A stretch of DNA of 63,567 nucleotides, filler included, from Klebsormidium nitens (GCA_000708835.1; 7 parts of 7 records of this genome joined end to end with filler, not necessarily neighbours in it); one strand, 5' to 3'. Shown: positions 1 to 60,246, counted from the whole stretch's first letter. The notes: generated by a model from the sequence alone, not told the origin. A program made the numbers and translations.

Positions 1-406
1 CTGTTCAGCGCCGCTTCAGTATGCGTGGCAACGTTGCTGAGATTTGCGAGGATTTCTTGTCAAGAGCGCACTCCCTCTGATCGCTGCGAGCGCCCAAGTG
101 TCTTACAGAGAATCCTATTGTCTCACCCTAGCTTACAAGTCGATCGTCACATCCCTTCTCTATCTTCATGACCGTGGTCTGCACTCCTATGTATGCGCAC
201 TTTTCCATTGGGGACTAGGCTTTTTTGGGTGGAGTTTGTGTGCACTACAATTATCTGGATACAGTACATTCATCAGGGCTGGATTCTCGTTTTGGGTTTG
301 CTCTTCGTGGCCTTCGATCTTTCTGACCCGATACGTTTTCCCTGCAGTTTGCCACTGACCCACAGTAAGTGTACCTGTCAGCAGGTTCCACTGATCTCTA
401 TTTTAG

Positions 407-16500: not shown

Positions 16501-19500
16501 CCTCGTCTGCATTACTCAGGGCGATTTGGCTTTTATGTCAAGTGAGGGCACGGCAGAACGGTGGTCATGTGCCAGCTTCATAGACGTTGGCAAGTACCAT
16601 GCGTCAGCATGCAACGGCCGGGTTTGAATCTTCCTTAAATCATTTCCGTTGACCCTGAGGGATCGGGTTGAGTGTTCTTCTGAGCTTGTCAGCTGCAAGC
16701 TGTAATCTGGGCTGGTGCAACAAACAACGCAGCATGACACTGACGTGGCTCTTTTCGAACCCACGGATCAATCAGGCCAGCCGACGGAAAGGACAACTCC
16801 AAAATCACCTCGCACGATGCCAGGGGGGTTGCCCGTTTTGTCGATTGCGTAATTGTAGCAGCAGCCAAACTGGATCGTCACTCGGCCCTTGCCACGCATC
16901 CACTTCCGCGGCTGGGTGTACGTCCTGGCTGTGACGTCAACAAAAGAGAGTTAAATCAAACTGAGAACGGCAGACAGGGAGCTCATTTGGCACTGCTCTC
17001 GTACTGGCACGACATCGAAACATGAGGCCACAGGCAGCACGCAAACTTCGCAGTCCCTCCGTTTTCTCTTTTAGAAGACAAACCGAATGGGCAGGCATCT
17101 CCAGTACAAGCCAAGAGACAGCTGCACGTGTACTCACGCATCAGCTTCCCCGCCTGCCCTTCCTCCTGAAGGGTGTAGATCCTCTTGACCAGCTTCGCCT
17201 GCTCGTCTGCGTTCAGAACATTCTCGTGCAGCTCTAACCCTTGAAGAATATTCACCTGCAAGCACGCAGATTGGGCTCACCATCATCTGCTAACGATACC
17301 TACGTGGAACACAAGGGGCACGAGTGCCGGCTGCTACTTTTACTGGGTTTTTGTCAAGGCAGACTCCTTTATCCTGAGAAACGACACAACAGGTCACGTG
17401 CAGGTCTGATTGTCATTGAATTCAAGGTGATACAAGAAGTGTAAGCCCTGCACTTTCATCCCCGAACATGCCGAGCAATTCGACAATCCTTGGTTAACCC
17501 ACCAACACTCTGCATAGATTGGTGTTAAATCAGCCACTTACCATTCGCCCTGACCTGTCTCTCTCCATGTACACAAAGTCCCGTGTGCTCTTCATCTTTG
17601 CCTTCCGCTGGTCCTGTGTCAACACCACCTTTGGTGCCCCAGCTGCCGGGGCTCCCGGCTCTGCTGTTTCCGAACTGCTCGCTAACGCCTGTGAAAAGCT
17701 CTTTACAGGGGCGGCTGCTGTGCCCTGCGAACCACCCCCTGCCGCCTCCGGAACTGCCTCCGGTCCCGCTCCATCTCTCTCTCCAGACTCTCCGCTAGCA
17801 CTCGTCACCGCTTCCAGTGCTCCACGGGGGTTCTGGTTTTCCTTGCCTTTCTCCAGCTTAGGCTGGAGGTCGCCCCGGCCAGCCTCCGCCAGGGCGGGCT
17901 TGCGGCTGGCAGTCTGCCGCGCAAGCTCCTGCTTCGCCGCTTCCCTCTCCGCCTTTTGCCTCAGCAGGCGCTCCATCCGCTCCTGCTTCGCCTCGTGCAT
18001 AGACTGCCCCTCCTGCGTCGTCTTGGCAGCGTCCTTGAGCGCCGCAAACAGGGTGAATGTTGGCGCAACACGCGGCCGGACTTTGACGGGGTTGCCCTTC
18101 ACAGATTTTGTCACCTCAGACCCGGCTGATTGCGGTGCCCCATCGTTTTCGCCGTCAACTTCTTCGTCCCCAGGCTTAAAAACCTCGCCTCCCTCCCGTG
18201 GCGGCTCCTCCGTTGCTACTTCGTCCACGTTGATGTCATCAACGTCCGCAGTGGACTCTGAGTATGAGATTTCCGGCTGCTTTGCAGGCTGGCCAGAACT
18301 CAACTCTGTCTCGTCCTGATCAACTTCGAAACCGCTGCTCTCTGCGCCTTTCTCGTCAACTCCAGCCCCGGCTCCTCCAGCCCCTTCCACCTTAACGTCG
18401 GCTCTCCCGTCCACACCACCTCCACTAATTTTCCTACCCCCCTCGACGGCAACGTCCGCAACTTCTCTCGATGCCTCTGCAACTCTGGCGCTCTCCTCTT
18501 TGTTACCACTGTCCCCAGTCCCGCCTGCATCGGCAGGGCCCTCTTCCCCGCCCTTATCTAACTGATCACCCCTGTTCCCTCCTCCCCAAGCTTCCCCTGT
18601 CTCATTTGCCTCAAGGGCCCCAACAGCCTCCCCCCCAAGTGCGCTTGCTATCCCCTCCGTGGCCTCACTTCCAGCTTTGCTCTCATGTTCCTTCTCTTCT
18701 TCCTTGTTGTCTCTTGCTGCAGCTACCCCCTCCCCTTCCTTTCGGACAAGAACCGGGCTCACTATCGGGGCACGGGAGTCACCATCGTCCTCCAAGTCAT
18801 CTTCGTCCTCTATCGCATCTTTCCACTCGCTCTCGGCAGCCCCCTCACTGCTCGCCCCCCTGCTGTCCATCCCCTTTTCCATCTCGGGGGGTGGCCCCAC
18901 GATGCTGCTGGCACTGCTCCCAGTGCTCTTGGTGGACAGGTTCAGGACCCTGTTCAGAGACCGCCCAACCAGCACCTTGGCCGTTTCTACGGGCTCCCCT
19001 CCGGCCCGAGCGGTGCTCCCCTCCTCAGAGGAGAGGTCGTCCTCGACTACCGACTTGTAATCGCTCTTGTCAAAGGGGCTCTGGCCCCTTGCACTCTGCC
19101 CTGGCCCCTCGCTTCCCCCCTCCTTGAGGCCTCCGTTCACGCTACAGTCCCCGCTATCCTCCTGAAAGCCCCCGACAGGCTCCTCAGCCTGAGGTGCAGG
19201 CTTGAAAGTCTCTGCTGAGGTATCTCCTCCCAAGGGGACCGCTATGCGGCCCTTACTGGGGCTGTGACTGCTGACCTCCACCTCGCCCTGGCTTTCTTCC
19301 TGGTCCCCCTCAGCACAAGCGGCCGCACCGTCATCGTTTGAGGGAACTTTCCCATGTGCTGCTGCAGCCAGACGTGTACTGTCGATAACGGCTGCAACCG
19401 AGTCTGCCGCACTATGTTCCCGCTGCAGCGGCGCCACCATTATACGGGTCAGCGCCGCTAACCCCTCATTAACCCTCTCGCCTTCGACCTGCCGTGGGAG

Positions 19501-19890
19501 CCTTCGAGCCGTCCGCACAGGCCTGGCCGCCCGCTCCTCCTCTACCCCCGTCTCTTGTTTACCCTCAACTGACCCAGTTTCTAAACCCTCAGCCTGGACA
19601 ACCCGCTCAGGCTTGTCCTCAGGAGCCGGCGCAGCAAGAGCGGCAGACGAGAGGTGCTCTGCTTCTAATGCCCGCACTCGCCTCTTGAGCTTCAGGTAAC
19701 AGCCGCTGCACATCCCAGGATCGGGCTCCCCCTCAAGGAGCCTCAGGATGTGCGCTTGCGCGCTCACACGCGCCTCGATGTAGCGCTGCTCCTCCTTGTA
19801 CTCCGCCAGCTCCCCTTGCACCTGCTGCAGCTTTGCAGCCAGCGCCCGTTCCGCTGGGGAACTCCCAGCAAAGAGTTCAAGGCCTTCCAT
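13589..19890 (-). CDS. ALKBH9: ALKBH9-like AlkB-family 2OG-Fe(II) RNA (m6A) demethylase, ~1546 aa, 6 coding exons
   Basis: Exons 19890-17542, 17255-17138, 16928-16809, 16506-16388, 15964-15807 and 15365-13589 have GT-AG borders and total 4641 nt in frame. Motifs: GLELHENVL, KWMRGKGRVTIQFGCCYNYA, PDSCIVNIYDEGDCIPPHIDH (HxD), AKHCIP (distal His) and KRISITLRK. Confidence 0.95.
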
Positions 19891-21330
19891 CGTCGCTTCC
19901 AGCGCCGTTTAAAGGTTGGACTTTCGTCCAACTGCTTCCACTCTCGCACCCTGTGAAAGCAAGCCAACTTGGATTTAGAAAAGCCGAAGGTAAGCAACCT
20001 AGACTCTATAAGCTTCTCGCGTTCTCACAAAGTCCCTGAGACAGGAAAATGCTTTCGAAAGATAAGATGCATATTGTTTACATGGTGACAACTGGACATC
20101 GCAACAAAGCTCGGTAAAAAGAAGCAGGGGGACACCAGAAGCAGAGGGGATATAAGAGCAGGCCAAAGGCATACAGAATCCTAAAACAGTGCCGCTCCGG
20201 CGCTCTTTTCGCCCTTGATTATCTTGTATACGCGTCCTGCATCCAGTTCACAGCACTCTAAACAATCAACCTTAAAGGTGCTCCCACAATATAATCATGT
20301 ATGACTCTGACATGTCGTTGCAGGGACAGCCACACGAGCAGTTGTTCCATGTGATCCGACCAGAAGTGGATGGCCATGTTACCAAAGAAAATTTTGCTCA
20401 CGCAGATTGAAGTAGTAAAGCGAGGGCAAAGAAAGGGCAAAGAGAGGGCTCCGCATCCCTGAGGTTGCACAGCAAGATGTTCACTATTATTCCAATCAGA
20501 CACCACATGAGCATAAGGAGGCTGCCTGGCAGCAGGGCAAATGATTCTAGGCAGGTAGAATGTTTACCCTCAACGCCTCAAAGAGACTTTAAGTGTGGAG
20601 CAGACCAAAAGCTTCAATCAACATACATTCAGTGCGACTCACATGTTTGCAGACAGTAAGACAGAAGTTCTAATCTACACATCCAGCGAATTGTGTTGTT
20701 CAGGAATCAGATGCAACACAAAATCTCCATCTTTACCATAGGGAGACAATCTTGGGTAGAGCTGAGGTTGTCTAAAACAATCCACCAAAGTGCAGAGAGT
20801 GTTTGCCCCGGTGCATTTGTGAATAAAAGTGGCAACACAAACCAGTCCCATCGATCCTTTTGACTGTTCCCAGTGTTATAGAACAAGGCCAAGAGCGTCG
20901 CTTGCAAAGGACGTCAAATAAAGCAGCGCAGGAATTGAATCTTGGCTTCCCAATCAACCGAAGTAACGAAGCAGCAAAATCTTCGAGTATCTTTCTCCGT
21001 GCACCGAGATTGCTGCTCAACTCTGTGCTCACCTCAAAACAGGGGCGCCCCTAGTAGTTGTACTTCAACCATCCAAGAATCTTGACACTCCGCTTTGAAA
21101 ACCACCTGCCGCCGCTGTTTGCAGCGCCCCGCCACCATCCGAGCTCTGCCCTTCTAACTTTTAGAGCGCAATCCAGTCTGTGCGCTCGATCGAAAGAAAC
21201 CATCGAACCTGACAGTGAGGCTGAACACCTTGAACCTGACCTCTCGAGTCTCAGAAGCAGAGTGAAGTTGGCCGCCGCCCTGGTAGGTTTTACGACGAAG
21301 AAGCACAGAATGCAAACCGATTCTACGGAA

Positions 21331-24754
<3,424 letters not shown>

Positions 24755-25447
24755 GCTTAAAAATCTCGTAAGAACTCACATGCAATCCTCAGGGCCGCAC
24801 ATTTTAGATTGTGAATGTCTCTAGGCCAAACAACAATTATGTACAAAGGAAGCTCGTAATCCGAAGAAGAGCCTCTTATGCGTTAGGAACTTTGCAGCAC
24901 CGATCAAGTCGTGGGATTGAAGGTTGTTGTCTATCCCCTGTTGCTTGCGCAATGGAGCAGTAAAGTGGCGCATACAAGACAGATGTCTGGCTTCCGCTTG
25001 TACGTTTCCCTGTATACAAAGATGGCTACTCTGTCTCGAGCAGCATGTACAATTGGCTTGTACAACCTGTGTGATGCGGAATGACAACGTTTTATGGACA
25101 AACTTTNNNNNNNNNNNNNNNNNNNNNNNNNNNNNNNNNNNNNNNNNNNNTTAATTAATTAANNNNNNNNNNNNNNNNNNNNNNNNNNNNNNNNNNNNNN
25201 NNNNNNCACATGGATGGGGCAAGTCGGTGATACCCTTGCAAGCGCGGCGCCTCCTTTGCACAACATTCTGCCCCTCAATCGTCCCATTCAGCACCAGTAT
25301 TCTGTCGTGTTGTCTGAAAGGTGCTCACTGCAGTCCGCGCGGCTTCAGCATCAGCTGGTCTCATGGCGTCGTGTTGTCTCGAAAGGGGCCAGACTGAGGT
25401 TCTTCTTTGAGTGCGGTCGTAAGTAGCTCGTTCCTGCTGTGCTGCAG

Positions 25448-28400
25448 GCCCGCGAAGAGGTCAAGCTGCCATTCAAAGTGCCCGACAGACTTCACGAGGG
25501 TTTCAGAAACCCCCGCGTGATGTCTGAACGCGGCACCGAGCGCAGCTCCCAGAATTCTGAGTTTGTCAAGGCGCGCATGCTGGCGCTGCTAAGAGAGCGC
25601 CTGCACCCCACCGCTTGCGAGGAGGGCGAGGATCGCTACAATTACAGCGATCGCACAGAGCCCTGCTACACGGGTCGGATCCACGAAAACCGTCAGAATC
25701 TGAGATGCTTCCTCAACCCGAACGGCAAGATCTATGCCCTCTGCTACAGCCAGAACACCGAGGGTGGGGACTCGGAAGATCCCTGCGTCAGCACAGCGTT
25801 TTGCCTTGGAGACCTTTACGAGGACGACAACTCGTACGAGAGCGGCGCTGTCCAGGTGGACCTGGAGCACCTCAGGCGGGTTCCCGACGCGTCGACCCCT
25901 AGGCTCGTGTCCGAAGTCGCAGCTGGTGTGAGGAGTGCGGACGACGTGATGAAGCTGAATGCGGTCACCAACGAGTGAGCATCACTCTTTCGATTTGCAG
26001 GCATCGTCTTTGCCGGTTGAGGCTTGAAGCATAATCTGTCGGTCTGCAGTACAGGTCGGTCAATATCTGTCAATGTCTGTTAATGTCGGTCTGCGAAACA
26101 GGCGCGCTTGCTTTCTGCGGGTTGTGAACACCCTTGTCAACCTCGTTTTCATAATAAAATCGGCTATCACACCAATTGTCGAGGCGCAAAGACTTTCTCT
26201 TTCTGAGAGAAATCTGAATAAAGTCCTCCCTGGCTCGGCTGATTCCAGGCCCCTGATCGAATTGATGCCAAACCAGTGAAAGGTGTTTGCTTTCAAGGCC
26301 CCCAAAACATCATGCTGAGTTTTTCAAGAGCCCCATAGGACTCTTCTCGCTTTGTGTCTTGAAATCTTTCACTGCCGTCCAGCCGGGTCCTCAGCAAGTG
26401 TCGTCATCTGCTCGCTCGTTTTTTTGTTGTCTTAGCTGACACAGTGCTGCCCGGATTCGTGTAGGTGGGTCGCGGGCACGTTTCCGCTGCTCGGCATCAG
26501 GTCCGGCGTCAACACCGGCAAGACGGTGTTCTGCGGGGCGGTCGGGGACGAGCTCTGGCGAGCCAGCGACCGCCCCATGACCACGATCATGATCACATAC
26601 CGTGTGGCGCAAGCCCAGGACCTCAAGCTCCGCTTTCCTCGCACCGTGAACTACCTCGACCTGAAGGCTGACCACGCGGACGAGTGGTTCTCAGATCCGC
26701 GTGATGTGCGCGTCCTCCTGACGGCGCTCCAATGCCGGGAGAAGTTCCCTGAGGTAGTGGTTCAGGTGGACAGCCTTCTGCACCTCCGGCCGGAAGGCAT
26801 CGGCGAGGTTGCTCCGTTCGACCTCGTGATCCTGGACGAGGTGGCCAGCATTCTTGCGCACCTCTCAGCGGCGACCCTGAGAAACGGCATTGAGACCAGT
26901 GAGCTGCTGCTGGAGATTGTGCGGCGGGGGAAGCGCGTGTTGGCCATGGACGATGGGTACGGCCAGCGGGAGCACGACTTCTTCCAGCTCGCAAACGTGC
27001 CCGGAAAGCTCATCATCAACACGAGAAGGGCAGCGGTGGGTCTCTCTGTCTCTATGTCTCGTGCAGGGCTTCCTAGGGGTCAAGCGGCTATTCAGCAAAT
27101 GCTCGTACCGGGCAAGTTTCAGGTGTACCACAAAAGGATCGCTTACTTTTTAAGAAAGAAACGCATTGCTTTGTGGTACGCCCCTCCCTTCCTTTCGCCC
27201 CCTCTGCTGCTGGGGGCAACACGGCCGTACCAAGAAACATTCACGTGTACCACAAAAGGACCGCTTACTTCTTTAGGAAGAAAAGCATCGCTTTGTGGTA
27301 CGCCACCTCCCATTTTTAAGCCCCCCTCCGCTGGTGCGGGCAACTAGTTGCTCAGGCTTGCTTAGAACCGAAGGCTTCATTCGTGGTGTGCAGCTGCTTT
27401 TGGTCATGCTTTGGTGAATCATTTCCGTACCGATTCATGCGCAGGTACCCCTGACCTTCCTCGTGTGTCAGGATGAGGAGAAGTGGCTGGCGCGGATCGT
27501 CGCTGATCTCGAAGCTGGCAAGAACGTGGTCGTCGTCAGCATGTCTGCGCGGGTCCTGGACCGCATCCGGGACCGGGTGACGAAGCACCGCGGGCTCGGG
27601 CTCGCAGACGGCGACATCCTAATCCACAAGGCCCTGAGCGGTGGCGACAACACGGCTCTGCTGAGGAACGTCGCTGTCAATTGGAAGGTCCGCCTGCTCA
27701 TGTACAGCCCGACCGTGGAGGCCGGCGTGAACTTCGACGAGGACTGGTTCCACACCAAGTTCCTCTACATGTGCATGAAAAGCACAACGGCCCGTGCAGC
27801 CTGGCAGGCGACGCTGAGGGTGCGGCGAACCGAGAGCTCGGTGGTACACTGCTTCGTCCAGTCATCCATCTCGGTGTTGCTGTACTCTACGCCATTGATC
27901 CCGGCCTCACGCCTTCACACCTCCGAAGATCAGGTGAGCAAACCCTCACGTGAATAGAATCCCACGCACCCCTCTCTGCTTGACTCCCGTCGCTAAACTT
28001 TCCGTGCTCGAGCTGTTTGGACTTTCACGTGAACACTGACCGCTCGGGAGTCTAAACACACGCACCCCTCTCTGCTTGACCGCGGCGGCTCAACTCTCCG
28101 TGCTCGAGCTGTTGAAGCTTCTCGTGAATCTGCAATCCTCTTCGATATTCGAAGCTCGGTGTGCCTGTTGTGATTCTGATGGGTCTTTTGGCAGGGCATG
28201 ATGGCCACGACACCGGAGGCATTGGATGCCGACGACGACGACGAGCCGGATCCACAGGTGACCGCATCTTCTCCTCCATGCGCCTCATATGCGCCTGTCC
28301 GCTTACTTGCAGCTTGGTGGGTCAGCTTGTTTGGTGGGCCAGCTTTGGCCATGGGCCAGACATGGTGGCCAGTTTTGGTGGGTTGGCCTTGATGGGCAAT

Positions 28401-30504
28401 GCCTTGTGGCCAGCCTTGGTGGGCAGCCCTGGTGGGTCCGTTCAGCGTCTTTCTTTTCGGATATTTTTAAGAACTCAGAGGCCGGTTTGTGGTGCAGCGC
28501 CGTCAACTACAACTTCTTTGAGAAACTTGGAGGAATGGTTGAGCGGCCCCACAAGCAGTCATCACCACGGCGGTGTACCACGTTTCAATGTCTTTCTTCT
28601 AAGAACTATTAGGCCACTTTGTGGTACATCGCCATCGACTATGACTTTTCTGGGAACTTGGTGGAATGGTCGGGCGGCCCCACAAGCAGTGGTGTACCCG
28701 GTTCATTGTCCTTCTTTCTAAGAACTAAGAGGCTAGTTTGTGGTACAGTGGGTCAGCCCCGGTGGATCAAGCGTGGTAGACGAGACACAAAGCCCATCGG
28801 CGCATGAGGCTACACCCGTTAAATGAGCTTCGACCCCAAGTTGACAACTCCTTTCTCTTTTTCGCTACTAGGAGCCCGGGCTCGATCGCTTGGACCAGCA
28901 AGTTGCCGTCGATTCTGTCCTCGACGACGCTTCTCTACCGCGCGGTGGCGAGGGTGCTTCTCGCGGTGGGTCCTCCAAGCGGGCCAAGGTGGGAAATCTA
29001 TGAGTTCGACGCGCCTCTTCTGATTTAAATAAGCTATTATGGTTTCCCGGGAATTGAAGAGATTCCTCCTGGGAAGCAAACAGAGAGTGTGCGAGAATGC
29101 TAGGGTACTCTCACAGAGTAGGAGAGGCTGGTCGCGTGCTCTCAATCCCGAGGAGGACACATATTGTCCGGCTGACAAAACAAGGAACCACATCTGATGA
29201 AGACGGTAGCATCAGCAGCACCTGGTTGCCTACCACTGTGCGAGAAGCTCCGCTCAACCTAATTATCCATTTCTTCACAGGGGCTCTTTGCGCCTCCGCG
29301 GCGAGTGACCACGGCTGAGACGTCGCAGTACCTGCAAGTCTGCAACAACAGAGCGACGGCGGCATGGAGGCGGGAATGGACACAGACCGAAGATCGTGCG
29401 AGGGTCGTTCGTCTGATCGAGGACGGCCCCCTCTTCCGCGCTTTTGCGCACACCGAGGCGGAGCGGCAGAACTCAAACGCGCGACTTCTCCACGAGTTCC
29501 AGCTGCAAGTCGCTCGTGCTGGCCATGTGGTCGAGATTGAGCAGGTCGAGGAGCTTGCTAAGAAGAAGAGGAGGCCAAAAGGGTTGGACCCAGATGCGGT
29601 CAGGATTATCGAGGCGAGGGCGATCGATGGGGCAGAGTATGAGAGGGTGAAGCGGTTGGTTCATGTGAAGAGGGATAGCGGGTCGCAGCATCTGGAGGTG
29701 ATGCGTTACGAGGCCTGTCAGTATTACGGGCTCAAGGACATTGACGAGCACTTTCTCAGAGAGACGAAAGCCCACTACAAGGCGCCGTTCTCGGAGCAGC
29801 TCGACTTTCTGTTGAAGGTGCTGCTTCCGGGGAAGTTTCTCGATGAGGGGGCCGTTGCTCGCAAGAGCCACGAAGTCGTCATGGTGCAAACGGCCCGGAA
29901 TCTGCTCACGGGCGTTATGGGCCTAGCGCATGCCTTCGACGTGGGCGGCGAGGCCCGGTCCCTACTCGCAGGCGGGCTCAAGGACAGGCTGGAGCGCTCG
30001 GACCTGTTTGAGGGCCACCGTAAGCGGGGTGGTGGGAAGGTGGCGATGCGAGAGCGGCCCGTCTCTCAACTGTTCGGCATCCAGCTCCCGAAAGTGCGAG
30101 AGGGAAAAGATGATCTCGAACCCCGGCAATGGAAGGCGGTGATGGACGGAGTGCTCAAACGCATGGGCCTCAAGCTGGGGAAAGCGATCGAGGTCAGCCG
30201 CCCGCGACGAGGGAAGGGGAAGGAGCACGAATCGGGGGCCGGAAACAGCGACTACAAGTGGAAGCTGGAGGCGAAGAACGTCCTTCGGATGGCCACGCTC
30301 GTCAAGCTGCAGGTCCGGGAGGTCCCTCGCGTCTGGCAGCATCGGCGAGAGCTGGCGCCCGCTGTACGAGAGTTCCTCAATGAAGTGGATGCCAGCGGTC
30401 TCGATTATTTATTGCGTAGGCCATCTGGTGACCCTCCGTTAGAGGACCTGGGCCCGCCGGCAGGTACGGAGGACACGGATGAGTGTATGATTGTGGTCCC
30501 ATGA
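25448..30504 (+). CDS. UL9/origin-binding-protein-like SF2 helicase with N-terminal primase-type zinc finger; 5' end missing (gap), about 996 aa recovered
   Basis: Exons 25448-25974, 26465-27035, 27445-27933, 28195-28257, 28872-28988 and 29281-30504 join in frame without stops (2991 nt). Motifs: I RSGVNTGKT, Ia ITYRVAQA, VVQVDSLLHL, II DLVILDEVASILAHL, III VLAMDD, V LMYSPTVEAGVNFDEDWF, VI QATLRVR. These parallel UL9-family motifs as recalled (Pfam Herpes_ori_bp). Upstream C-H-C-C pattern: PCYTGRIH...IYALCYS...DPC. Confidence 0.8.
27125..27301. repeat. Two 55-bp palindromic units (GTACCACAAA-35 bp-TTTGTGGTAC) in helicase intron
   Basis: Units at 27125-27179 and 27247-27301, period 122 bp, in reverse orientation relative to the copies at 30.8-31.1 kb. 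Confidence 0.9.
27962..28117. repeat. Intronic ~55-bp direct repeat pair
   Basis: CACGCACCCCTCTCTGCTTGAC...CCGTGCTCGAGCTGTT occurs near 27963 and near 28060. Confidence 0.85.
28305..28746. repeat. Intronic TTGGTGGGCCAGC-like minisatellite followed by ~120-bp tandem units with GTACC...GTGGTAC palindromes
   Basis: Degenerate GGTGGGC repeats at about 28315-28440; palindromic units at 28575-28627 and 28694-28746; partial unit ending near 28497. Confidence 0.8.
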
Positions 30505-30729
30505 TCGGCTATGGAGTTGTTCGTTGGAACTTGACACAACTACCGCATTGGCACAAGTCACTTATTGATTGAAAGCCCTCTAAAATCTCAAAGGAAGCTT
30601 TATGGCAATTCTTGGGTTGCAGCATGTAGCTCCCTTTTTGATCTATTGAGCGCATGTCCGACCAATTCGAGTGCACATCATTCGCTGATCACATGAAACG
30701 TTGTATTGGTTTCTTAGTAGTCTAAGACA

Positions 30730-31114
30730 TTCGCACTTTTGTGGTATACCTCCAAGTTGTCGGACGTGCCCCCTTAAGCGGTCCGACCATTCAACGCATG
30801 ATCGAGGCGTACCAAAATAAGATGTATATCTTCTTTATAAAGTAATCGGCCGTTTTGTGGTACACCTCCAAGTTGTCCGATGTGGCAGCGCGGCGCCCTT
30901 AAGCGGTCCGACCATCCTACGCATGATCCGCGCGTACCAAGAAATGGTGTGTTACTTCTTAAGAATCTAAGTGGTCCTTCTTTGGTACACTCTGAATCTT
31001 GCAGGGTATGGCTGGACGGCCCCTTCCAGCAGTCCAAGCATCCAATGCGTGATCCGCGTGTACCAAGAAACGATGTCTTTCTTTCTAAAGAAGCAATAGG
31101 CCGTTTTGTGGTAC
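30730..31114. repeat. ~125-bp tandem repeats each carrying a 55-bp GTACCA...TGGTAC unit
   Basis: Units at 30809-30863, 30934-30988 and 31060-31114; partial right arm near 30740. Confidence 0.9.
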
Positions 31115-31296
31115 ACTTCAAAGTTGCAAGGCATGGCCGATCTTGCCGCACAGTCCGATCTTCGAGCGGGTAATCAACCATATTCGGAACCCTTGGTTTT
31201 GCGGACCGAGCATGCACGCACATAGGGAGAGGGTTGGAAGACTTAGAACAATGTGGGGCACCCTCTTCGTCATCATTCTCGATTCGAAGGTCCATC

Positions 31297-31839
31297 ATGT
31301 CCGCCGCCGCCCCCTCGCATGATGCCGCACACTCAACAGCATCCTATATGCCACAACTTTGGAAGCGGGATAAGGGTTGCTTCATTTGCCTCGAACGGCA
31401 TGCCAATGCCTCAGCGACTTGCAACAAGAGCTTCATGTCGAAGCAAGCCTTGGAAGGTCATCGGAAGCGGATGGGGTGTCAGCCTTGGAAGCTCCCGAGC
31501 GATCGTGCGCCCTCAAAGTATGATGGCCTCGAGCCAAGAGCTTCCCGTCAATTGAAGCGCCAGAGCAACACCGCCGCAGTTGCAAAGTATCGCCGCACTC
31601 TTGAAGGAGAGCGCGCGGTCTTTCGCTCACGACACATGGCAAAGTACCGCATCTTGGCTCGCAGCGCCATCCCCGCTCCACCCATGCCAAAGGCACCGGA
31701 GTACACGCCCCCGCCATTGTCGTGGCTCATCGCAGGCGCCGAGCTTCTTCCATGCGAAGCCTTGGAAATGTTGGATCGTGGCAAGATTGTGTTGAGCCAC
31801 AAGACTTGGTCGGTGCGCTTCCATCCTGACAAGATCAAG
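31297..31839 (+). CDS. Hypothetical protein exon with QALxGH-type zinc finger, bZIP-like basic segment and J-domain-like HPD motif; 3' part unresolved
   Basis: ATG at 31297; contains TCNKSFMSKQALEGHRKRMGC, LKRQSNTAAVAKYRR and HKTWSVRFHPDKIK; donor GTAGGT at 31840; copia inserted 122 bp downstream of the exon end. Confidence 0.55.
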
Positions 31840-31961: not shown

Positions 31962-32349
31962 TGTTGGATTGTGACGAGACAATCCGGACGCCAAACATTA
32001 GGGTTAGTAGATTAGGGTTTGTGGGTTTGAGTCTAGATCGTAGGGTCAGGAGTAGACCCGGCCTTGGGTCGATTGTAGGCCGTCGATATTGTGACTCAAT
32101 GGTTAGAGTCGGAATTGAATCGAGTTGGACCCTAGCCTAGGTTGCGTAACTCGGAGTAAGGGGAGTACCCTAGATCTGGAAGACTCTAGAAGTTGATCTG
32201 GGTATGCAGGAAGTTAGGAACGGGACCTGACATGAACCTGCATCATAATAAGAATGTGTCTACGTGCAGTTGAGAGTTGAGGGCGCCTCCCCATGTGCTT
32301 TGTGTGCACCTCTGCATCCATGTGTGCTGTCTCTAGCTGATTTCCAACA
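31962..32349 (+). repeat. 5' LTR of copia element (388 bp)
   Basis: Starts TGTTGGA and ends TCCAACA (7-bp inverted termini), immediately followed by the PBS. Confidence 0.85.
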
Positions 32350-32365
32350 GGTTATGGGCCCACCA
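32350..32365 (+). other. Primer-binding site for a half-molecule of initiator tRNA-Met
   Basis: GGTTATGGGCCCACCA is complementary to the internal UGGUGGGCCCAUAACC segment of plant tRNA-iMet as recalled, not to the tRNA 3' end. Confidence 0.85.
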
Positions 32366-32486
32366 TTGCAAGGGTGAATCTGCTGTGAAGTTAGCGTTGG
32401 GAGAGAAGCCGCGTGGTGTAGAGAAGTTGTCTTGTGAGAGGGTGAATTCTTGAAGCTTGAGGGAGTAGAGAATTCAGAAGGCAACG

Positions 32487-35400
32487 ATGGGGAGCTTAAA
32501 GATCTCGATGGAGCCTCTCGGGGAGGGGAACTACCACTCGTGGTCGATCAAGATGAAGAGTTATCTTATCACCAAGAGCTTGTGGAGGGGGGTAGAAAAT
32601 CCATCGGAGAACGAAGAGGAGTCAAAGCAGGCGTTGGCTCTGATAACGTTGAACGTGTCAGACCATCTGCTGGGGAGCCTGTCAGAGCTGCAAGATGCTG
32701 GGAAAGCGTGGAAGCAGCTAGAGAGCACTTTCAAGAGCAAGAGCGTGGCTCGGAAGTTGCAGCTAAAGAGGGAGCTGCAGACACTCAAGATGAAGGGAGA
32801 TGAGAGTGTCACTCTCTATATCACACGGGCGCGTGATATCTGGCAGGAGCTGAAAGCTACGGGTGAGAAAGTCACTGATCAGGAGCTTGCATGGAGTGTG
32901 TTGACCGGGTTGCCTAGCTCGTTTGACGTGTTGGTAACGGTGCTAGAGACTCAGGCTGAGGATCAGTTAACGGTAGATAAGATCTTGCCTACTCTGGTTG
33001 TGCATGAGCAGAGGTTAGGAGGATCTGGAGGTTCCAGTGAGGAGAGGGACACGGCTGTAGCGTTCGCGGCCAGCGGGAAGGGTCGCAAGAGCTTTGGGGG
33101 CAAAGGGGCCTCGGGAGGTACGAAGGGCTCTGCCCGAGGGGACGTGAGTGGCGTGAGGTGCAGGAAGTGTGGGGAGCTTGGGCACTTTGCGAGGGACTGC
33201 ACCCAGGAGGTCAGGTGCAACAATTGCTTGCAGCATGGCCACATGGCGAAGGAGTGCAGGAAGCCACCCACGTGTCTCAAGTGCGGGAAGTCGGGGCACG
33301 TGGCCAAGGACTGCAGAAGCGGGGGCAGTTCTGGGGGCCCGAATAAGCGGGGAGTGGCGTTTTCTGCGGTGGCCGAGGACAGGGGCGGTGCAAGCGTCGA
33401 GTGGCTGCTGGACTCGGGGAGCAGCGAACGTCTGACGGGGAACAAGGAAGTCTTCAAGACGTTCCGGGCAATCAGCAAGGTGGCTGGGCGTATCACGTTT
33501 GGGAACGGGGGGGTCCTGTATGCAGAGGGGGAGGGGACCGTCGAGCTGCAGTGCAAAGTGCCGGGTGGTGAACAGCTCGTAACCCTCACCAACGTGAAGT
33601 ACATCCCAGGTATGCCGGTGAACCTTGTCTCGGTGGGTTGCGTAGAAAGTAGAGGAGCTGTGGTTGTGTTCAGGCAAGGCGGGAGTCAGGTCTTGCTGGA
33701 CGGTGATGTCGTGATGGAGGCTAGACTGTCAGAGGGGGTCTATGTCATTGAGATGGCCGGGGCTGTGTGCAACGTGGTCAGGAGCGAGTCGGCGACGTTG
33801 TGGCACAGACGGCTGGGGCACGCAGGGTTCGAAAACCTAGCAAAGATGGTCGAGAACGGCTGCGTGAGCGGGGTCAGGGTTAGCGCGGATGAGTTTCGAG
33901 GGGAGTTAACCCGGGTCTGCGAGCCGTGTGTGATGGGAAAGCAAACAAGAGCGCCCTTTCCGGCGAAGAAGGAGAGCGAGACGGAAGTGAAGGGGCCCCT
34001 GGATTTGGTGCACACAGACGTGTGTGGCCCGATGCCAGAAGAGTCGATTGGGGGCAGCCGGTTCTTCGTGACGGTGCTCGATGACTACAGCAAGCTGTCG
34101 GTGGTGACGCCGATCCGGAGGAAGAGCGAGGTGAAGGACGTGTTAGAGGGGGTGTTCAACCGGTTAGAGACGGAGACCGGCAAGCGGGTTAAGCGGGTTC
34201 AGAGTGACCGGGGGAAGGAATACCTCAACAAGGAGATCAAGCAGATGTACCGGGGCCGGGGGATCATCCAGCTCGCACATCGGCTCGGTACAGTCCGAAA
34301 GAGAACGGATCGGCAGAAAGTCTTAACCGTAGGCTGGAGGAGAGGACACGGGCGATGCTGGAAGACTCGGGGTTGCCGAGCAAGCTGTGGGCGGAAGCGG
34401 TGGTTAGCGCTAACTACACACGAAACCGGACGCCGGTGAAGGAGCACGGGAAAACCCCGCTGGAGATGCTGACGGGCAAGAAGCCGGACCTGAGCAGGCT
34501 GCGGGTGTGGGGAGCACCAGCCTACATGCACGTGCCGAAGGGACTGCGCACGAAACTGGAGCCGGTGAGCCAGAAGGGGTGGTTCGTGGGATACGAACCG
34601 GATTCGACGGGTTACAGGTTTTTGCGGAAGAAAGACGGGCGGATCTTGGTGACGAGGGACCTGATCGTAGACGAGGGCGTCGCAGGGGAAAGCGTGGTGG
34701 AAGACGAGGTGGCAGAGCCCAACCCGGGGAAGCCAACCGGGGGAGAGGGGTCGGGGGAGTCTGCGCCTCGGGAGGAGAAGCGGGAGGCAGTCGAGGAGAT
34801 TGACCTGCGGAGCGACGATGAGGAGGAAGACGGGCAGCGCTACCCAACGCGGGCGCACGTCGTTCCAGCGCGGTATGCCAACGTGGCGCGGGCACGTGGC
34901 GGTGACGCGTGGCAGACGGAGAATACCTCCGTCGTCGTCGAGCCGAGCTCCGACGCAGGGAAGGAGCAGGGGGGTGCTCGCGGCCCTAGTCGTGTGAGCC
35001 CCCCTGTCTCAGCTGGTGCGGGGGCTACTCCCACGGGAGAGGCCAGTGCCGGCAAACGGGGTGAGGGCCATAACACGCAAAATACGTTGGGAGGCCAAAA
35101 TGGGGCCAAAACGTATAGTCCGCCCCTAGAGACACCCAACGAGGGTTCGGGGTTGAAAGAACCCCAGTCGTACCAGGAAGCCGTAGGGGGAGAGCAGAGT
35201 GAAATCTGGCGGCAGTCCATGGACGACGAGATGCGGAGTCTGCTGGAGAACGGGACGTGGGAGTTGGTCCCGAAGCCTGAGGGGGTGAAGCCGGTCCCGA
35301 TGAAGTGGGTTTACAAAATCAAGCAGGACGCAGCGGGAAACATCGAGCGGTTCAAATCGCGACTGGTGGCGAAGGGGTTTCTCCAGCGGCAGGGGGTGGA

Positions 35401-36685
35401 CTTCGAGGAGGTGTACGCGCCGGTGTCGAAGCACACGACGCTGAGGGCGTTGCTGGGAGTCGTTGCGGCGAGAGACTTAGAGCTGCACCAGCTGGACGTC
35501 AAGACGGCGTTTCTGAACGGTGAGCTGGAGGAGGAGATTTACATGCAGCAGCCGCAGGGGTATGAGCAGGGTGGACCGAAGACGGTGTGTCGTCTGAAGA
35601 AGACGATTTACGGGTTGCGCCAGGCGCCGAGGGCTTGGCACCAGAGGCTGAAGGCGGAGCTGGGGGAAATCGAGTTTCAGGCCTCTGAGAGCGACGCAGC
35701 GCTGTTTACGGGAGTAGTAGACGGAGAGCGGGTGTGGGTAGTCGTCTGGGTGGACGACATTCTGATCGCAGCGGCGGGGGAGAAGAGGTTGGCCAAGGTG
35801 AAGGCGCACCTGTCGAGGAAGTTTGACGTGCGTGACCTGGGACCGGCGGAGTACTTCCTGGGGATGGAGCTGACGCGCGACAGGCGCGCGCGCACGGTCA
35901 AGCTGACGCAGAAGAAGCTGACGAAGGAGTTGCTGGGGCGGTACGAGCTGGAGGCAGCAAAGGCGCGAAGCACTCCGCTGTCGTCGGGGGAGAAGCTGCA
36001 GAAGGAGGGGGATCCTCTTGACACCGGCAAGTACCCCTACAGTGAGTTGGTCGGGAGCCTGCTGTATCTGAGTGTGTGCACGCGGCCGGACATTGCGCAG
36101 GCAGTTGGAGCGCTGGCGCGCTACATGTCGGGGCCGACACAGGAGCACTGGCGGGCAGCGCTTGGGGTGGTGCGCTACCTGTCCGGGACAGCAGAGCTGG
36201 GAGTGACGTTCGGGGGGAGCGCAGAGCCGCTGGTGGGTTATGCAGACGCAGATTATGCGGGGGACGTGGACAGCCGCAGATCCACGACCGGGTACGTCTT
36301 CCTGGTGTACGGGGGAGCCGCAAGCTGGTCGAGCAGGCTGCAGCCCACGGTGGCAGCCTCAACGGTGGAAGCGGAGTACATGAGCGCGGCGAGTGCCGCG
36401 AAGGAGGCGCTGTGGCTGAGGAAGCTGTGTGGAGATTTGGAGCTGCCCGGGGGAGCTGTCCAGATCTACGGGGATAACCAGGGTGCGCTGCAGCTGCTGA
36501 AGCACCCGATTGCTTCGCAGCGCACCAAGCACATCGACGTGCTGCATCACTTTGTGCGAGAGAGAGTGGCTCGGAGGGAGCTGCGGTACGAGTACGTTCC
36601 GACGAAGCAGATGGTGGCGGACGTCTTTACTAAGCCGTTGGACCCGGGCCAGTTCAGAGCGTGCAGGGAGATGCTAGGGATGTAA
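32487..36685 (+). CDS. Copia gag-pol polyprotein with one frameshift near 34270
   Basis: Gag start NYHSWSIKMKSYL; three CCHC knuckles; protease WLLDSG; integrase LWHRRLGH, CEPC, HTDVCGP, QSDRGKEY and (after the frameshift) ENGSAE; RT QLDVKTAFLNG, YGLRQAPRAW, VWVDD; RNase H ADADYAGD, YGDNQGA, TKHIDVLHHFVRE. Confidence 0.95.
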
Positions 36686-36934
36686 TCGAGAGGCAGTGTA
36701 GAAAGAGAGATAATGTTCGGCGTGGGGGAGNNNNNNNNNNNNNNNNNNNNNNNNNNNNNNNNNNNNNNNNNNNNTTAATTAATTAANNNNNNNNNNNNNN
36801 NNNNNNNNNNNNNNNNNNNNNNNNNNNNNNCTCAGCCCCCCCCCCCTCATCAGAATACCTACCCCGCTGCCGCGCGGGCCAAGCTTCAAAGTTCGACGGT
36901 ACAAATTACAGTTTCATCGAAACCGTCGCCCCGG

Positions 36935-37512
36935 ATATACAGGAAGTTTACGCTCTCTAAGCTACGCTCTCTAAGGATAGCGACGATTTCAGGAATTGCA
37001 ACGATTCCACCGTGGCCACTACCCTTTGAAGTTTGCACCGGGGCAGCCTCCTGGGACAAGAACTCGACGGCGCGGATCGATCGAGCTCTGGAAGAAAGTT
37101 GCCCGTCCGTAAGTTAGCTGCGTGACCGGTCATCGGTGCCAGGTTCATCATCTGACCGGAGGGCGCTGAATATAGCCAGCGAAAGCCACCGAAGCAGCCG
37201 GTACGTTCCTGGTGGTCACCTGCCAAGACCTCGGAGTGCGGGCCCGGGCAACGCTGACCCAGTCCGGACACCCCCCTGGGACACTGAATTTGTACCGCGG
37301 AATTAAACTGGCCGGTACTGACTGGTGGCGACCGGCGTTTGTCAATGCTCACTGCACTCGATGCGAACCGTCGATTTCAGGCCCGTAAGTATATGGACGG
37401 CAACAGTCAGTTAGATTGCTGCCACGCTGGAAATTGTCGCTACGTCAGCAAAGTCTGCAATCGGGCGAGTTTAGAGAGCGTAGGGCTTAGAGAGCGTAAA
37501 CTTCTTACATAT
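36935..37512. mobile_element. MITE with imperfect TIRs and 8-bp TSD (hAT-like)
   Basis: Left end ATATACAGGAAGTTTACGCTCTCTAAG matches the reverse complement of the right end ATATGTAAGAAGTTTACGCTCTCTAAG; CGCCCCGG direct repeat at 36927-36934 and 37513-37520. Confidence 0.8.
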
Positions 37513-37560
37513 CGCCCCGGCCCCAGGGGGACCAAACGCCTCAGGTATTAATAGGTTTGC

Positions 37561-37687
37561 CTCCTGAACCATGTGCCAGCAGCCAAACCCCTCATTGCCC
37601 CAACCCGAAAATTGGTGGAATCAAACCTCCGAAGGGTCTTGTTTGTAACCCTTGAGTTTTGGGTTGGGGCAAGAAGGGGTTCAGGAG
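37561..37687. repeat. Small foldback element
   Basis: CTCCTGAACC pairs with GGTTCAGGAG; TTGCCCCAACCC pairs with GGGTTGGGGCAA. Confidence 0.7.
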
Positions 37688-37704
37688 CTATTTTGTGCTA
37701 ATTA

Positions 37705-38092
37705 GGCCACGCGAAGTCAATATGTTGTTTCCGGTCCACCCCCTTCTGGGGTGGGTCGGTCGGTCGGCAGAAAATAATAAATAAAGTTTTGGGCTGATAT
37801 AGGATATTTCTTCGCATTTTGCACAAAAACTGACCCAAAAATCCAACATCCGCGATTTGGGTAGTAATTTTGGCCCAAGAATCCGTTCTTCCTGACGGAT
37901 GAGAGCAGAACTTGTCGAATTCGTCAAGTTTTCCCTCTTGATGTCGAGACTCACAGCCAATTTGACCAATTTTAAGGTGCATAAGTGGCATATGACCTGC
38001 CAAAATCCAAATTATTATATTATTGTTTTTCAAAATCTTCCAAAATTTGGGTCGGTCGCGGACCGGAAACTACATATCGACTTCGCGTGGCC
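37705..38092. mobile_element. Tourist-like (PIF/Harbinger) MITE
   Basis: 33-bp TIR GGCCACGCGAAGTC(A/G)ATATGT(T/A)GTTTCCGGTCC with 2 mismatches; TTA on both sides (37702-37704, 38093-38095). Confidence 0.88.
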
Positions 38093-38325
38093 TTAAGGAG
38101 GGTTAACCAGGCAGAAATGCCTAAACTGCTTGATAACCAGCCACTAGACCCAATCTACATGCCAACCGGGACCTACCGAGCACTGGGGACGCTTTAAAAG
38201 GCAATCTGGACCGTTCATTGAAGAGAGATTTCATCCGACGGCACATAACATGGTGTCGGCCCTTCAACTGGTGTTTGGTCCCCCTGCCCGGCCCGGTTGG
38301 CAGGCCGCAGAGTGGGGCAAAACGT

Positions 38326-38735
38326 ACAAAACTTGTGAACTCCTTTCGAAAGTTCGGATGCGGACGGTCTTTGTCCAGTGTTTTGGGTAGTACCGGCGCG
38401 GATTGGGATTGGCGGACGGTATGCACCGTTTAATACGAGTACGGTACCGGGTAAAGCAACCGGGACACTCTCTGTGACATTAGGGTTAAGTCACAAAGTA
38501 CTGATGGTGTGTTAGGGTTACGCCACTTCCTGGGACGGTTTGTTAGGGTCACGTCCCTTCCCTGTGACTGCTCTCAGATTAGGGTTCCCACTAACGGCTG
38601 AGCACTTATTCCTAGGATTTTAGTGTGGTTAGGACCACCCGGTTGGTAGGACGACGAAAAATACCGGTCGCAAGCTTTGACCGGCGACAGGAACCGTCCG
38701 CGTCCGAACTTTCGAAAGGAGTTCACAAGTTTTGT
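38326..38735. mobile_element. Foldback/MITE-like element with 42-bp inverted repeats
   Basis: ACAAAACTTGTGAACTCCTTTCGAAAGTTCGGA(T/C)GCGGACGG at 38326-38367 and inverted at 38694-38735; no clear TSD. Confidence 0.75.
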
Positions 38736-39599: not shown

Positions 39600-40517
39600 T
39601 ACTTCTTACAAGCTTCCATTTGGGTTTAGCTTCTCAATCTAGGCAGCCCTCCCCGGCTACCTTCTTCTTCTTGTCGTACGTAGACACCCAATCAATAACC
39701 CTCATCGGAGTTAGAAGCAGATTGATCCGATTACGATGAAAACTTAAAATAGCAACAGCCCAGGTGCAAGACATCTTCCCTTCCTTACTGTACGCTGCGC
39801 TGACCGCAACGTGAGTGACGGTCCGTGCCCCCCTTTCTGCTCGGTAATTTGCTCATTCAAGACGCTTGATTGCAGAACTGTGACGAANNNNNNNNNNNNN
39901 NNNNNNNNNNNNNNNNNNNNNNNNNNNNNNNTTAATTAATTAANNNNNNNNNNNNNNNNNNNNNNNNNNNNNNNNNNNNNNNNNNNNGGTGGAGGAAGTG
40001 GAGGCAATCTGCCCCTGGTGGTGCGCCGATCCGGTGAGTGGTCAGCAGATGGAATTTGGGGACAGGAGTTTGTGTTTGAAGGTGCACAGCGCGCAGATTC
40101 CAATATTGATGACTTTGCAATAACTATCTGAACTCACGTGCCAAGGGCCGTAGTTGCAAGGAACTTCGGGACTGTCTGACATTCTGATAGATGCAACGTG
40201 ACTTAAGATCTTCGAGGTAGCCAGTACATACAGACAGTATATCTTGTATGTTTTTCACTGCAGTCCCTGTGCTTTTGCTTTGATCCACCCTAGTGGCGTT
40301 CAAGATATGGCTTCCAACAAATTGTAAGGGCTTGATGTGTCTTTGAACGCGCCGTAATTCCGATAGAAGGTTTGAATATGAGTTGACCGGATATTGCGCG
40401 CAGAGTATTGTGAGTTCGCGAGTGAATTTTAAGAACTCTTACAGCTTTTTGAAGAACAGGATAGGGAACTTTTGGTTTTTGACGACATAGTGACGATTAT
40501 GCATCAATGTCTTGTAG

Positions 40518-42147: not shown

Positions 42148-42352
42148 TTGGTATTGCTGGTGCGTTAGTATTCGCCAGTTTTTGTACTCAAACACTTGTA
42201 TTGTAAACCGTGGTCGTGTATCTCCAACTTTGCGCCCAAGTGTGAACCTCAGTCAATTCCATTATATTGTAGTTAGATGTCGAGACTGCGTAGGGCGCGT
42301 ACGATCCGACGAAGCAAAGTTTCGGTCGGAAATCTGACCGTACGCGCCTCGT

Positions 42353-55413: not shown

Positions 55414-56137
55414 CTGCAGATATAGAGGAAAGCAGAAATTTGCTAGGCTCTAGAAAAAGAGAACAATCGTCGGCTTCTACTTTTTCTTCGGGTCGAAATC
55501 TGCAACTACAGGACGGAGGGGTGATTGTCTTCTTGTGNNNNNNNNNNNNNNNNNNNNNNNNNNNNNNNNNNNNNNNNNNNNTTAATTAATTAANNNNNNN
55601 NNNNNNNNNNNNNNNNNNNNNNNNNNNNNNNNNNNNNGGGCCGCCCGCATATATGCGGATAATTTAACGGCATGCATGCGCAATGCAGCTGTATATACGT
55701 TGCATGATTTTGCGTTCAAATTTCACTTGCCTAGGCAACTGTACGTACCTCAATGAAATATTATCATTAACTTAAGTACTAAACGTCGCGACTAGCCTAG
55801 CCGATTACTAACGGCTCCAAACCGACGTCGTCGCGTTATTAATCTATATTTATACTGGTCAATTATTCGAAATGCCCACGTACCGTTAAGTTATGAAGTT
55901 ATGCATCATCGATTCATATTGAATGCTGAGTAGCTGCCCGGGCGTGACCATCTAAATTCCGTTCATTCTCAATGATGACACTCTCAAAATGATCATCATA
56001 TACCTAGCTAGCCTGGAGCAAAAGTAGCTTGAACATTCACAGTAGTAGCCGCGCGCGCACGCCATGACCACGGGCCCGGGGCGTCGATTGCACTCGGTGC
56101 AGGCCGTGCACGCGGCATCAGCTTTAAGTTTAGGGTA

Positions 56138-60146: not shown

Positions 60147-60246
60147 TGATTGGCACGAGGAGTCTGGTTACGTGCTCAAGAGGAGAAAAGAATGGCGAGA
60201 ATTCAAGCTCCTCTTGAGCACGTAACCAGACTCCTCGTGCCAATCA
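60147..60246. repeat. Perfect 39-bp inverted repeat with 22-nt loop
   Basis: TGATTGGCACGAGGAGTCTGGTTACGTGCTCAAGAGGAG at 60147-60185; exact reverse complement at 60208-60246. Confidence 0.97.

Follow-up and report, generated by a model that had tools for sequence, protein, structure and literature searches.

Gene structure and domain composition

The sequence analyzed (hereafter the window) is a 63,567-nucleotide (nt) stretch of Klebsormidium nitens DNA (GCA_000708835.1), in which parts of seven records are joined with filler. Positions 25448–30504 carry a primase-helicase gene, followed on the same strand by a second gene with a zinc finger. The first gene, which joins a primase and a zinc finger to a UL9-type helicase, is of viral ancestry, spliced, under selection and present in many copies; the second gene is linked to it, and the paired inverted boxes in two introns and the 3′ flank of the first gene are, within the window, confined to the locus. 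The features are listed in Table 1.

Table 1. Features of the primase-helicase locus (positions in the window)
Feature	Position	Strand	Remarks
Assembly spacer	25107–25206	.	44 N + 12 nt + 44 N; spacer length does not give the true size
Exon A	25448–25974	+	End of primase linker, C-H-C-C zinc finger (25664–25786), helicase start
Exon B	26465–27035	+	Helicase RecA1 domain; Pfam PF02399
Walker A, SGVNTGKT	26502–26525	+	Exon B
Motif II (DEV), LDEV	26832–26843	+	Exon B
Motif III, AMD	26943–26951	+	Exon B
Two ~122-nt repeat units	27085–27327	-	Intron 2; cores 27125–27179 and 27247–27301; DNA fold z -3.9 and -4.7
Exon C	27445–27933	+	Helicase RecA2 domain; RNA contig
YSPT	27703–27714	+	Exon C
Motif VI, QATLRVR	27805–27825	+	Exon C
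Exon D	28195–28257	+	Acidic linker; both sides spliced in X1 record 4
Three repeat units	28425–28785	+	Intron 4; right boxes 28486, 28618, 28737; first and third left arms degenerate
Exon E	28872–28988	+	Linker
Exon F	29281–30504	+	C-terminal domain
Four repeat units	30680–31165	+	3′ flank; right boxes 30738, 30854, 30979, 31105
Gene 2, exon 1	31297–31839	+	C2H2-like zinc finger, HPD tripeptide; multi-copy in K. nitens
Ty1/copia retrotransposon	31963–36730	+	In gene 2 intron; Pfam gag, integrase, RVT_2; X3 joint 36730 to 31963

The six exons, joined through five GT-AG introns of 490, 409, 261, 614 and 292 nt (phases 2, 0, 0, 0 and 0), yield 996 stop-free codons followed by one stop. An initial annotation of this DNA, made by a model from the sequence alone, had described five phase-consistent introns and about 1000 stop-free codons, and the recomputed gene model agrees. 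In one RNA contig (X1 record 4; 261 nt, one mismatch), introns 3 and 4 are missing over precisely their lengths of 261 and 614 nt; a second X1 contig covers 266 nt of exon F with zero mismatches. Introns 1 and 2 are spliced out in paralogous transcript contigs of data sets X3 and X6. The RNA junction check proposed in the initial annotation thus holds for introns 3 and 4 in the gene itself and for introns 1 and 2 in paralogues; for intron 5, no junction occurs among the 15 joints listed (of 31). Intron 3 contains a 96-nt tandem duplication without counterpart in the copy of X2, another Klebsormidium data set (27944–28113), and intron 4 contains a 13-nt minisatellite (28354–28436).

The helicase region belongs to the UL9 family. 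Exon B matches Pfam PF02399 (Herpes_ori_bp) with an E-value of 6e-9 (35 bits, cut-off 20), exon C matches it weakly (E 0.015), and all 10 of the first homologues also pass the cut-off. The four PDB matches of exon B are all replication origin-binding protein. Superfamily 2 (SF2) helicase motifs I, II, III, V and VI are all present. UL9 came first in every search, so that a cellular RecQ, DEAD or Lhr helicase was rejected and the proposed UL9/giant-virus type was upheld. Motif VI, which is QSLGRVR in UL9, was again read as QATLRVR. The change had been considered a possible sign of decay; however, the glycine is also replaced in four of eight non-Klebsormidium relatives checked, and inactivation by this change was therefore rejected.

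The zinc finger in exon A has the spacing C-x5-H-x19-C-x13-C, and the nine non-Klebsormidium relatives inspected have C-x5/6-H-x18/19-C-x4/5-C. Exon A alone had no match in Pfam. The PrimPol/UL52-type finger consists of three cysteines and one histidine behind an archaeo-eukaryotic primase (AEP) domain (PMC5295015), and the Klebsormidium finger has this composition and position. Residues 180–600 of the family protein P0005 have Atlas neighbors with AEP_C962R and Herpes_UL52 domains (score 0.90–0.92), which supports the finger type originally proposed. A profile of 20 relatives retrieved both the origin-binding protein of herpes simplex virus (HSV; E 9e-36) and human PrimPol (E 9e-13).

Exon F shares homology with the C-terminal domain of intronless relatives (hhalign 99.1%, E 4.5e-19 to alignment A3). 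The predicted model of one relative, P0013 (predicted local distance difference test score, pLDDT, 83), has a Bodo saltans virus protein as its best fold match (E 5e-61), with Indivirus and Samba virus proteins also at the top. Residues 339–1040 of this model superpose on UL9, up to UL9 residue 832, with a Z score of 27.7 and a root-mean-square deviation (rmsd) of 14.0 for 515 aligned residues, and its AEP region superposes on the PrimPol structure with a Z score of 22.5 and an rmsd of 2.7 for 215 residues. On the basis of these models, exon F is likely homologous to the UL9 DNA-binding domain; the RVKNL recognition motif was not recognized by eye in the C-terminal domain.

The translation is identical over 984 residues to KFL_010140010 (P0001, 1619 residues, on an 18,827-nt record), starting at P0001 residue 606. 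The P0001 model takes another last splice, and the resulting 32 residues match the 3′ flank in the window exactly. P0001 may be a very young twin of the window copy, or the two may represent a single locus that entered the assembly as separate records. The N-terminal 605 residues of P0001 hold a PrimPol-like primase in which AEP motifs II and III are present and motif I is missing from the model. Motifs I (DxD/E), II (SxH) and III (D) are all found in seven of the nine subfamily-1 copies that include the region, the exceptions being the P0001 and P0008 models (both without motif I), and in both subfamily-2 copies. Therefore, the primase exons (about 605 residues in P0001) belong 5′ of the assembly spacer, as the initial annotation had supposed in proposing a primase-helicase fusion with its catalytic domain in the gap. 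Additionally, an X2 contig of 6196 nt extends 4287 nt upstream of position 25218, and no matching X2 record was found among the pieces listed on 12000–25106 (X2 depth at most 2.2 there, except in two short bins). Thus, several kilobases are likely missing from the window, which holds about the 3′ two-thirds of the gene. The window copy itself may be disabled, with gene 2 split by a copia element and motif I absent from the gene model of its twin.

Copies in Klebsormidium and relatives elsewhere

The paralogue count suggested at the outset gave at least 13 copies in K. nitens, each with a distinct locus tag. Ten of the 13 lie on records of at most 31 kb, and four are flagged as partial; such a mix of intact and decayed copies is typical of mobile families. 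A single domesticated gene, one possibility raised in the initial annotation, fits poorly with at least 13 copies of which several are partial or lack motif I. A search with the exon B protein returned 10 proteins among 2375 candidates, nine from K. nitens (66–100% identity) and one environmental (31%).

A FastTree phylogeny was built from 118 proteins of at least 550 residues covering the helicase core (P0039 and P0171 omitted as truncated; no named viral sequence included). The 10 subfamily-1 copies group together (Shimodaira–Hasegawa support 100) and form one clade with subfamily 2, represented by P0014 and two unnamed proteins (support 98). This Klebsormidium clade sits beside 42 environmental and green-algal proteins. 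Compared with expressed paralogues, 23 of the 38 exonic differences listed (of 821 in total) are synonymous, where 24% would be expected, and the catalytic domains of P0001 are 63–84% identical to those of its paralogues versus 33–52% for the linkers. These figures indicate that the family is under purifying selection, one of the possibilities raised in the initial annotation. Among the variable N-termini, that of P0014 (KFL_005490050) carries the UniRef label ubiquitin-like-domain-containing, and those of P0007 and P0008 contain a cysteine/histidine motif ahead of a 2A-like peptide; this motif, which had no Pfam report, presumably resembles EsV-1-7 repeats.

The X3 and X6 data match the host exons of the window with zero mismatches and are spliced; both are thus RNA from the genotype of the window. 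Most of their helicase contigs are less than 95% identical to the window copy, and depths reach hundreds to about 1300, compared with 1000–2600 for the dehydrogenase gene upstream and 120–190 for the genes at 13.5–20 kb (contig depth being a rough measure of expression).

In X2, the element, introns included, differs from the window at 217 of 5582 nt (3.9%) with a contig depth of 6–9, and the host DNA at 646 of 6869 nt (9.4%) with a depth of 2.2, in both cases for the pieces listed; the element is 3–4 times as deep as the host. Over the genes at 13.7–20.3 kb, no host cover came close to a depth of 8, and a closer strain within X2 therefore does not explain the low divergence of the element. 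The X2 data would be explained by transfer between lineages combined with either an extrachromosomal form or three to four near-identical copies.

A search of 1.84 billion proteins with P0005 found 1586 relatives at an E-value of at most 0.001. Among the best 150, the closest are about 1030–1175 residues long, 31–39% identical and mostly unnamed, and span the primase, finger, helicase and C-terminal domain. They include a protein of Tetrabaena socialis and a eukprot protein labeled 'Astpho2', which we take to be Asterochloris; both genera are endogenous-virus hosts. No land-plant or other streptophyte protein was present among the 26 helicase-family matches looked up by name, nor among the other named rows.

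The zinc-finger pattern retrieved 10 metagenome loci, of which eight encode members of the primase-helicase family. The other two (L008 and L012) were rejected as members, since they are D5-type giant-virus primases that share the finger. Four loci (L004, L006, L011 and L013) are intronless and gene-dense, with 54–64% GC and with D5-like primase and T5orf172 neighbors; no capsid gene was found in the stretches examined. In L006, the gene ends 0.8 kb from the contig end, where a perfect 100-nt palindrome is followed by GT-rich repeats (positions 1–600). A ~120-nt repeat occurs at 4783, 10220 and 12720, and two D5-like primase-helicase genes are nearby. L006 is possibly a 28.5-kb linear, hairpin-ended replicon. 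The L013 contig ends in 62-nt tandem repeats, and 1.6 kb separate these from the end of the gene. The two contig ends suggest linear, possibly hairpin-ended viruses or plasmids, with the reservation that the palindrome could be an assembly artifact. Three further loci (L005, L007 and L010) are near-identical to each other and carry a relative split over two frames, followed by partial duplications of its C-terminal domain.

A scan of viral contigs with the Klebsormidium alignment returned nothing, and one with the family alignment returned at least three distant DEAD-type phage loci (28%). The zinc-finger pattern had no match in the viral contigs, and a phage collection gave identities of only 22–26% among the 15 of 140 matches listed.

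Inverted repeats and the second gene

Nine repeat units of ~120–130 nt are present, two in reverse orientation in intron 2, three in intron 4 and four in the 3′ flank. In the six clear units, the inverted arms GTACCACAAA and TTTGTGGTAC, or near variants, stand 43–45 nt apart, and the central 16 nt are 69–81% AT, versus 46–53% in the surrounding non-coding DNA. All 10 matches of the 10-mer box in the window (at most one mismatch) fall within 27125–31114, about 11% of its length; 2.9 matches would be expected window-wide, and 10 were reached in none of 100 shuffles. The arm cells are 78% complementary, versus 36–65% when slid against each other. Opposite-strand joints place repeat-like sequence in an upstream intron of the copy in X2, as well as in X3 and X6 paralogue contigs. 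The palindrome pattern gave nine single matches in viral contigs, each without accompanying helicase, gene 2 or element DNA, and these were taken as chance. Rfam reported nothing in the window.

The HSV origin oriS is described as two inverted boxes around an AT-rich spacer, with a 56-bp substrate spanning both (PMC13483431, PMC12543377). The six clear units have this layout, with two inverted boxes and an AT-rich spacer over about 55 bp. Judged from geometry and position only, the repeats are candidate replication origins. Of seven cores folded as DNA, four have z scores below -3.4 and one has -2.1. Compensatory change does not exceed that of shuffles (96–141 of 500 as high), and a selected hairpin was rejected because covariation is absent. 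This absence is more in keeping with paired sites for protein binding, or with recent common descent, than with a hairpin under selection.

The full gene 2 protein has about 289 residues, and its second exon was not found in the window. Its homologues form 13 clusters, all from K. nitens or unnamed and including six NCBI loci; the viral contigs contain no match. One homologue, KFL_005490055, lies directly downstream of KFL_005490050, a distant helicase copy, and in its model is even joined to the C-terminus of that helicase. The sequence HPDK is conserved in gene 2. A J-domain protein was not supported: no DnaJ match was found in 14 members, the model has a pLDDT below 50 at the HPD, and the best comparisons reach a score of 0.78 and a Z of 6.0. 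The copia element in the gene 2 intron is a passenger, and X2 depth falls at its start. Its gag-integrase and reverse transcriptase are in two overlapping frames (656 and 825 codons), and relatives about 90–93% identical occur in X3.

A 2A-like motif, G-(A/G/C)-(V/I)E(S/P)NPG-(P/W/M) or SGIESNPGM, occurs in the N-termini of eight otherwise divergent helicase copies from both subfamilies. The core of ribosome-skipping 2A peptides is D(V/I)ExNPGP; in the Klebsormidium copies the canonical aspartate is absent, and only four of the eight motifs end in proline. Eukaryotic 2A-like peptides often occur in transposon proteins (10.64898/2026.06.17.732966).

Nature of the element and its surroundings

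We give an even chance to the reading that the gene initiates replication of a DNA element that resides in the genome and amplifies itself, and to which the downstream zinc-finger gene and the predicted origins also belong. In this scheme, the host transcribes and splices the primase-helicase family, the one step observed here. The C-terminal domain would then bind the intronic and 3′-flanking pairs of inverted boxes, as UL9 binds its origin, and the SF2 helicase would melt the AT-rich core between them. The primase and zinc finger would lay primers, by analogy with PrimPol, which host polymerases or the primase-polymerase would extend, so that the element becomes over-replicated. New copies might enter chromosomes by recombination or through an enzyme encoded outside the sequenced part. 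The ancestral gene, without introns, may have belonged to a DNA virus infecting algae or to a linear replicon. Origin binding, self-replication and mobility are thus what we infer for the element. A self-synthesising element, as proposed in the initial annotation, is still the best guess, but neither an integrase nor DNA polymerase B nor element ends were found.

Several observations weigh against the self-amplifying element. Pfam searches with 128 open reading frames (ORFs) of the window gave no integrase, transposase (apart from those of copia), DNA polymerase B, HUH nuclease or capsid, and no element termini or target-site duplication can be defined in the window, because the 5′ part lies in the gap and the 3′ part is cut by copia. 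Five of the six NCBI gene 2 loci are on scaffolds without any of the 13 retrieved helicase copies. Contigs at least 99% identical to the window copy number only two of 89 in X3 and four of 94 in X6; the paralogues are thus well transcribed and the window copy little. X2 may be a mixed sample, and P0001 and the window copy may be one locus counted twice. The repeats could be a minisatellite: two of the seven cores fold no better than shuffles, compensatory change is lacking, and no recurrent box pair of this kind was found at the 10 metagenome loci. K. nitens is, moreover, already known to hold several giant-virus inserts (PMC5294986).

Unlikely, but the strongest of the alternatives, is that the copies are endogenous giant-virus pieces or one latent virus lineage with an origin-binding primase-helicase of the R8/F1055L type, whose introns were gained as in punuivirus latency genes. 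The palindromes would then be viral origins or intergenic repeats, and the gene would replicate only within a whole virus. This is consistent with the giant-virus proteins at the top of the fold matches, with the relatives in Tetrabaena and 'Astpho2', and with the nearest relatives being intronless, on gene-dense contigs with D5-like primase and T5orf172 genes (L004, L006, L011). K. flaccidum/nitens carries five polymerase, six capsid, six ATPase and five VLTF3 genes of giant-virus type (PMC5294986). In an active endogenous giant virus, 61 genes contain introns (10.64898/2026.10.09.758095); introns therefore do not date the gene, and by themselves they imply neither the long residence first deduced from them nor domestication. 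However, the giant-virus hallmarks (capsid, polymerase B, A32 ATPase and VLTF3) were not found among the 128 window ORFs scanned, the 5′ flank being in the gap, and the neighborhood is not a gene-dense, virus-dominated block: to the left of the gap are ordinary expressed host genes, and to the right are copia, short inverted-repeat elements and small spacer-joined contigs. The 13 copies exceed the 5–6 reported per hallmark gene, and gene 2 matches are confined to Klebsormidium or unnamed sources. Paralogue transcript depth is, by the rough measure used, of the order of that of the dehydrogenase gene, whereas viral genes of K. nitens are reported to be enriched in the methylated fraction (PMC12344493).

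We consider it improbable that a virus-derived gene was co-opted into a chromosome-end helicase family, such as the yeast Y′ and fungal telomere-linked helicases. The copies would have spread by ectopic recombination between subtelomeres and would help replicate or repair chromosome ends, and the repeats would be subtelomeric minisatellites. Purifying selection and transcription are compatible with this, six of the 13 copies come first among the annotated genes of their scaffold, and in L006 and L013 the gene lies within 1–2 kb of the contig end and points to it, beside the 100-nt palindrome or the 62-nt tandem repeats. About six units of TTTTAGGG, the telomere repeat of Klebsormidiophyceae (PMC3622300), lie downstream of the gene on the same strand (61123–61169), where they end a contig after a T-rich run. 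This array is, however, only 47 nt long and about 30 kb and four spacers away from the gene, a further contig of 2.3 kb is scaffolded beyond it, and small scaffolds make a first gene common by chance. Nor would ordinary subtelomeric DNA be expected to diverge less than host genes, as the element does in X2.

It is very unlikely that the copies are an ordinary host multigene family, long ago derived from a virus and serving in repair or repriming, with incidental repeats and neighbors: the host-like GC content at third codon positions (0.77 versus 0.83 in a dehydrogenase exon), spliced transcripts and purifying selection would fit, but streptophyte proteins are absent from the matches looked up by name, copies are decayed, introns are closer than host exons between data sets, and the boxes are confined to this locus within the window. 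A Helitron, which encodes an HUH Rep fused to a Pif1-type SF1 helicase, was rejected, since the helicase here is of the SF2 UL9 type with an AEP domain.

Origin-binding helicases of the AEP-SF2 type are described from mimivirus (R8), African swine fever virus (pF1055L), some Yaraviridae (SF2_hel), ostreid herpesvirus 1 (a homologue) and mriyaviruses (PMC11253617). The Klebsormidium protein shares with those of giant viruses and mriyaviruses the N-terminal AEP primase, the UL9-like SF2 helicase and a helical C-terminal domain. It differs in the C-H-C-C finger between primase and helicase (P0010 has PriCT-2 there), and the gene differs in its spliceosomal introns, its long low-complexity N-terminus with the 2A-like motif, its at least 13 nuclear copies and, in this window, the lack of a viral hallmark neighbor. 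With HSV UL9 and oriS it has in common the Pfam family, the helicase motifs, a structural match extending into the C-terminal domain and inverted boxes around an AT-rich spacer of similar length; in contrast, UL9 has no primase, the box sequence is different, and the nine candidate origins lie inside introns of the gene itself or in its 3′ flank. Green-algal giant endogenous viral elements (punuivirus and the K. flaccidum inserts of PMC5294986) likewise place giant-virus genes with spliceosomal introns in an algal nucleus, but they extend over long, gene-rich stretches that include capsid, polymerase B, A32 and VLTF3 genes. The Klebsormidium locus, to the extent that the window covers it, consists of two genes flanked by host genes and transposons.

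Polintons and Polinton-like viruses (PLVs), as well as Helitrons, are by their usual definitions also multi-copy DNA elements with a replication enzyme of their own. Polintons, PLVs and mriyaviruses combine a capsid with protein-primed polymerase B, integrase or HUH nuclease and have terminal inverted repeats. Of the enzymes of Polintons, PLVs and Helitrons, neither a protein-primed polymerase B nor a retroviral integrase, an HUH nuclease or a Pif1 helicase was seen in the window; the enzymes present at the locus are instead an AEP and an SF2 helicase of the UL9 type.

Possible, though on the doubtful side, is a broader reading in which the locus represents a class of eukaryotic DNA element not described before, self-replicating but without a capsid. 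A single protein of giant-virus descent would provide origin recognition, unwinding and priming, with herpes-like origins in the spliceosomal introns of its own gene; the element would be amplifying and moving sideways between Klebsormidium lineages, and its ancestors would be linear algal replicons with hairpin ends, of which L006 is a possible example. The protein family is already known in giant viruses, and the Klebsormidium proteins carry the database label 'replication origin-binding protein'. No paper treating them as a family or an element was found in the literature covered, which excludes most subscription journals. If the reading as a self-amplifying element is correct, it would add a replication strategy to the eukaryotic mobilome and show that an initiator gene from a virus persists in a close relative of land plants as a selfish unit with introns. 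We know of no mapped origin for the R8/F1055L-type helicases; the locus supplies a candidate DNA target, with protein and predicted site side by side and directly testable.

The remainder of the window contains genes and repeats apart from the element. The initial annotation had described the window as full of decayed ORFs, which does not hold for 12–25 kb. A dihydrolipoamide dehydrogenase gene (21870–24754, forward strand) is spliced and highly transcribed in X3 and X6. The long exons at 13465–21200 on the reverse strand (with frames of 641 and 792 codons) belong to one or two transcribed, spliced genes; they have no Pfam match and are about 91% identical in X2. An exon at 172–825 (forward strand) encodes the C-terminus of a DBP10-type RNA helicase (Pfam DBP10CT, E 2e-11), and a multi-exon, gene-like region whose scanned frames have no Pfam match lies at 40500–42150 (forward strand). 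Pairs of inverted repeats of 34–43 nt, 390–560 nt apart and resembling miniature inverted-repeat transposable elements, together with a 116-nt palindrome, are found at 36943–38735, 56133–56581 and 60141–60253.

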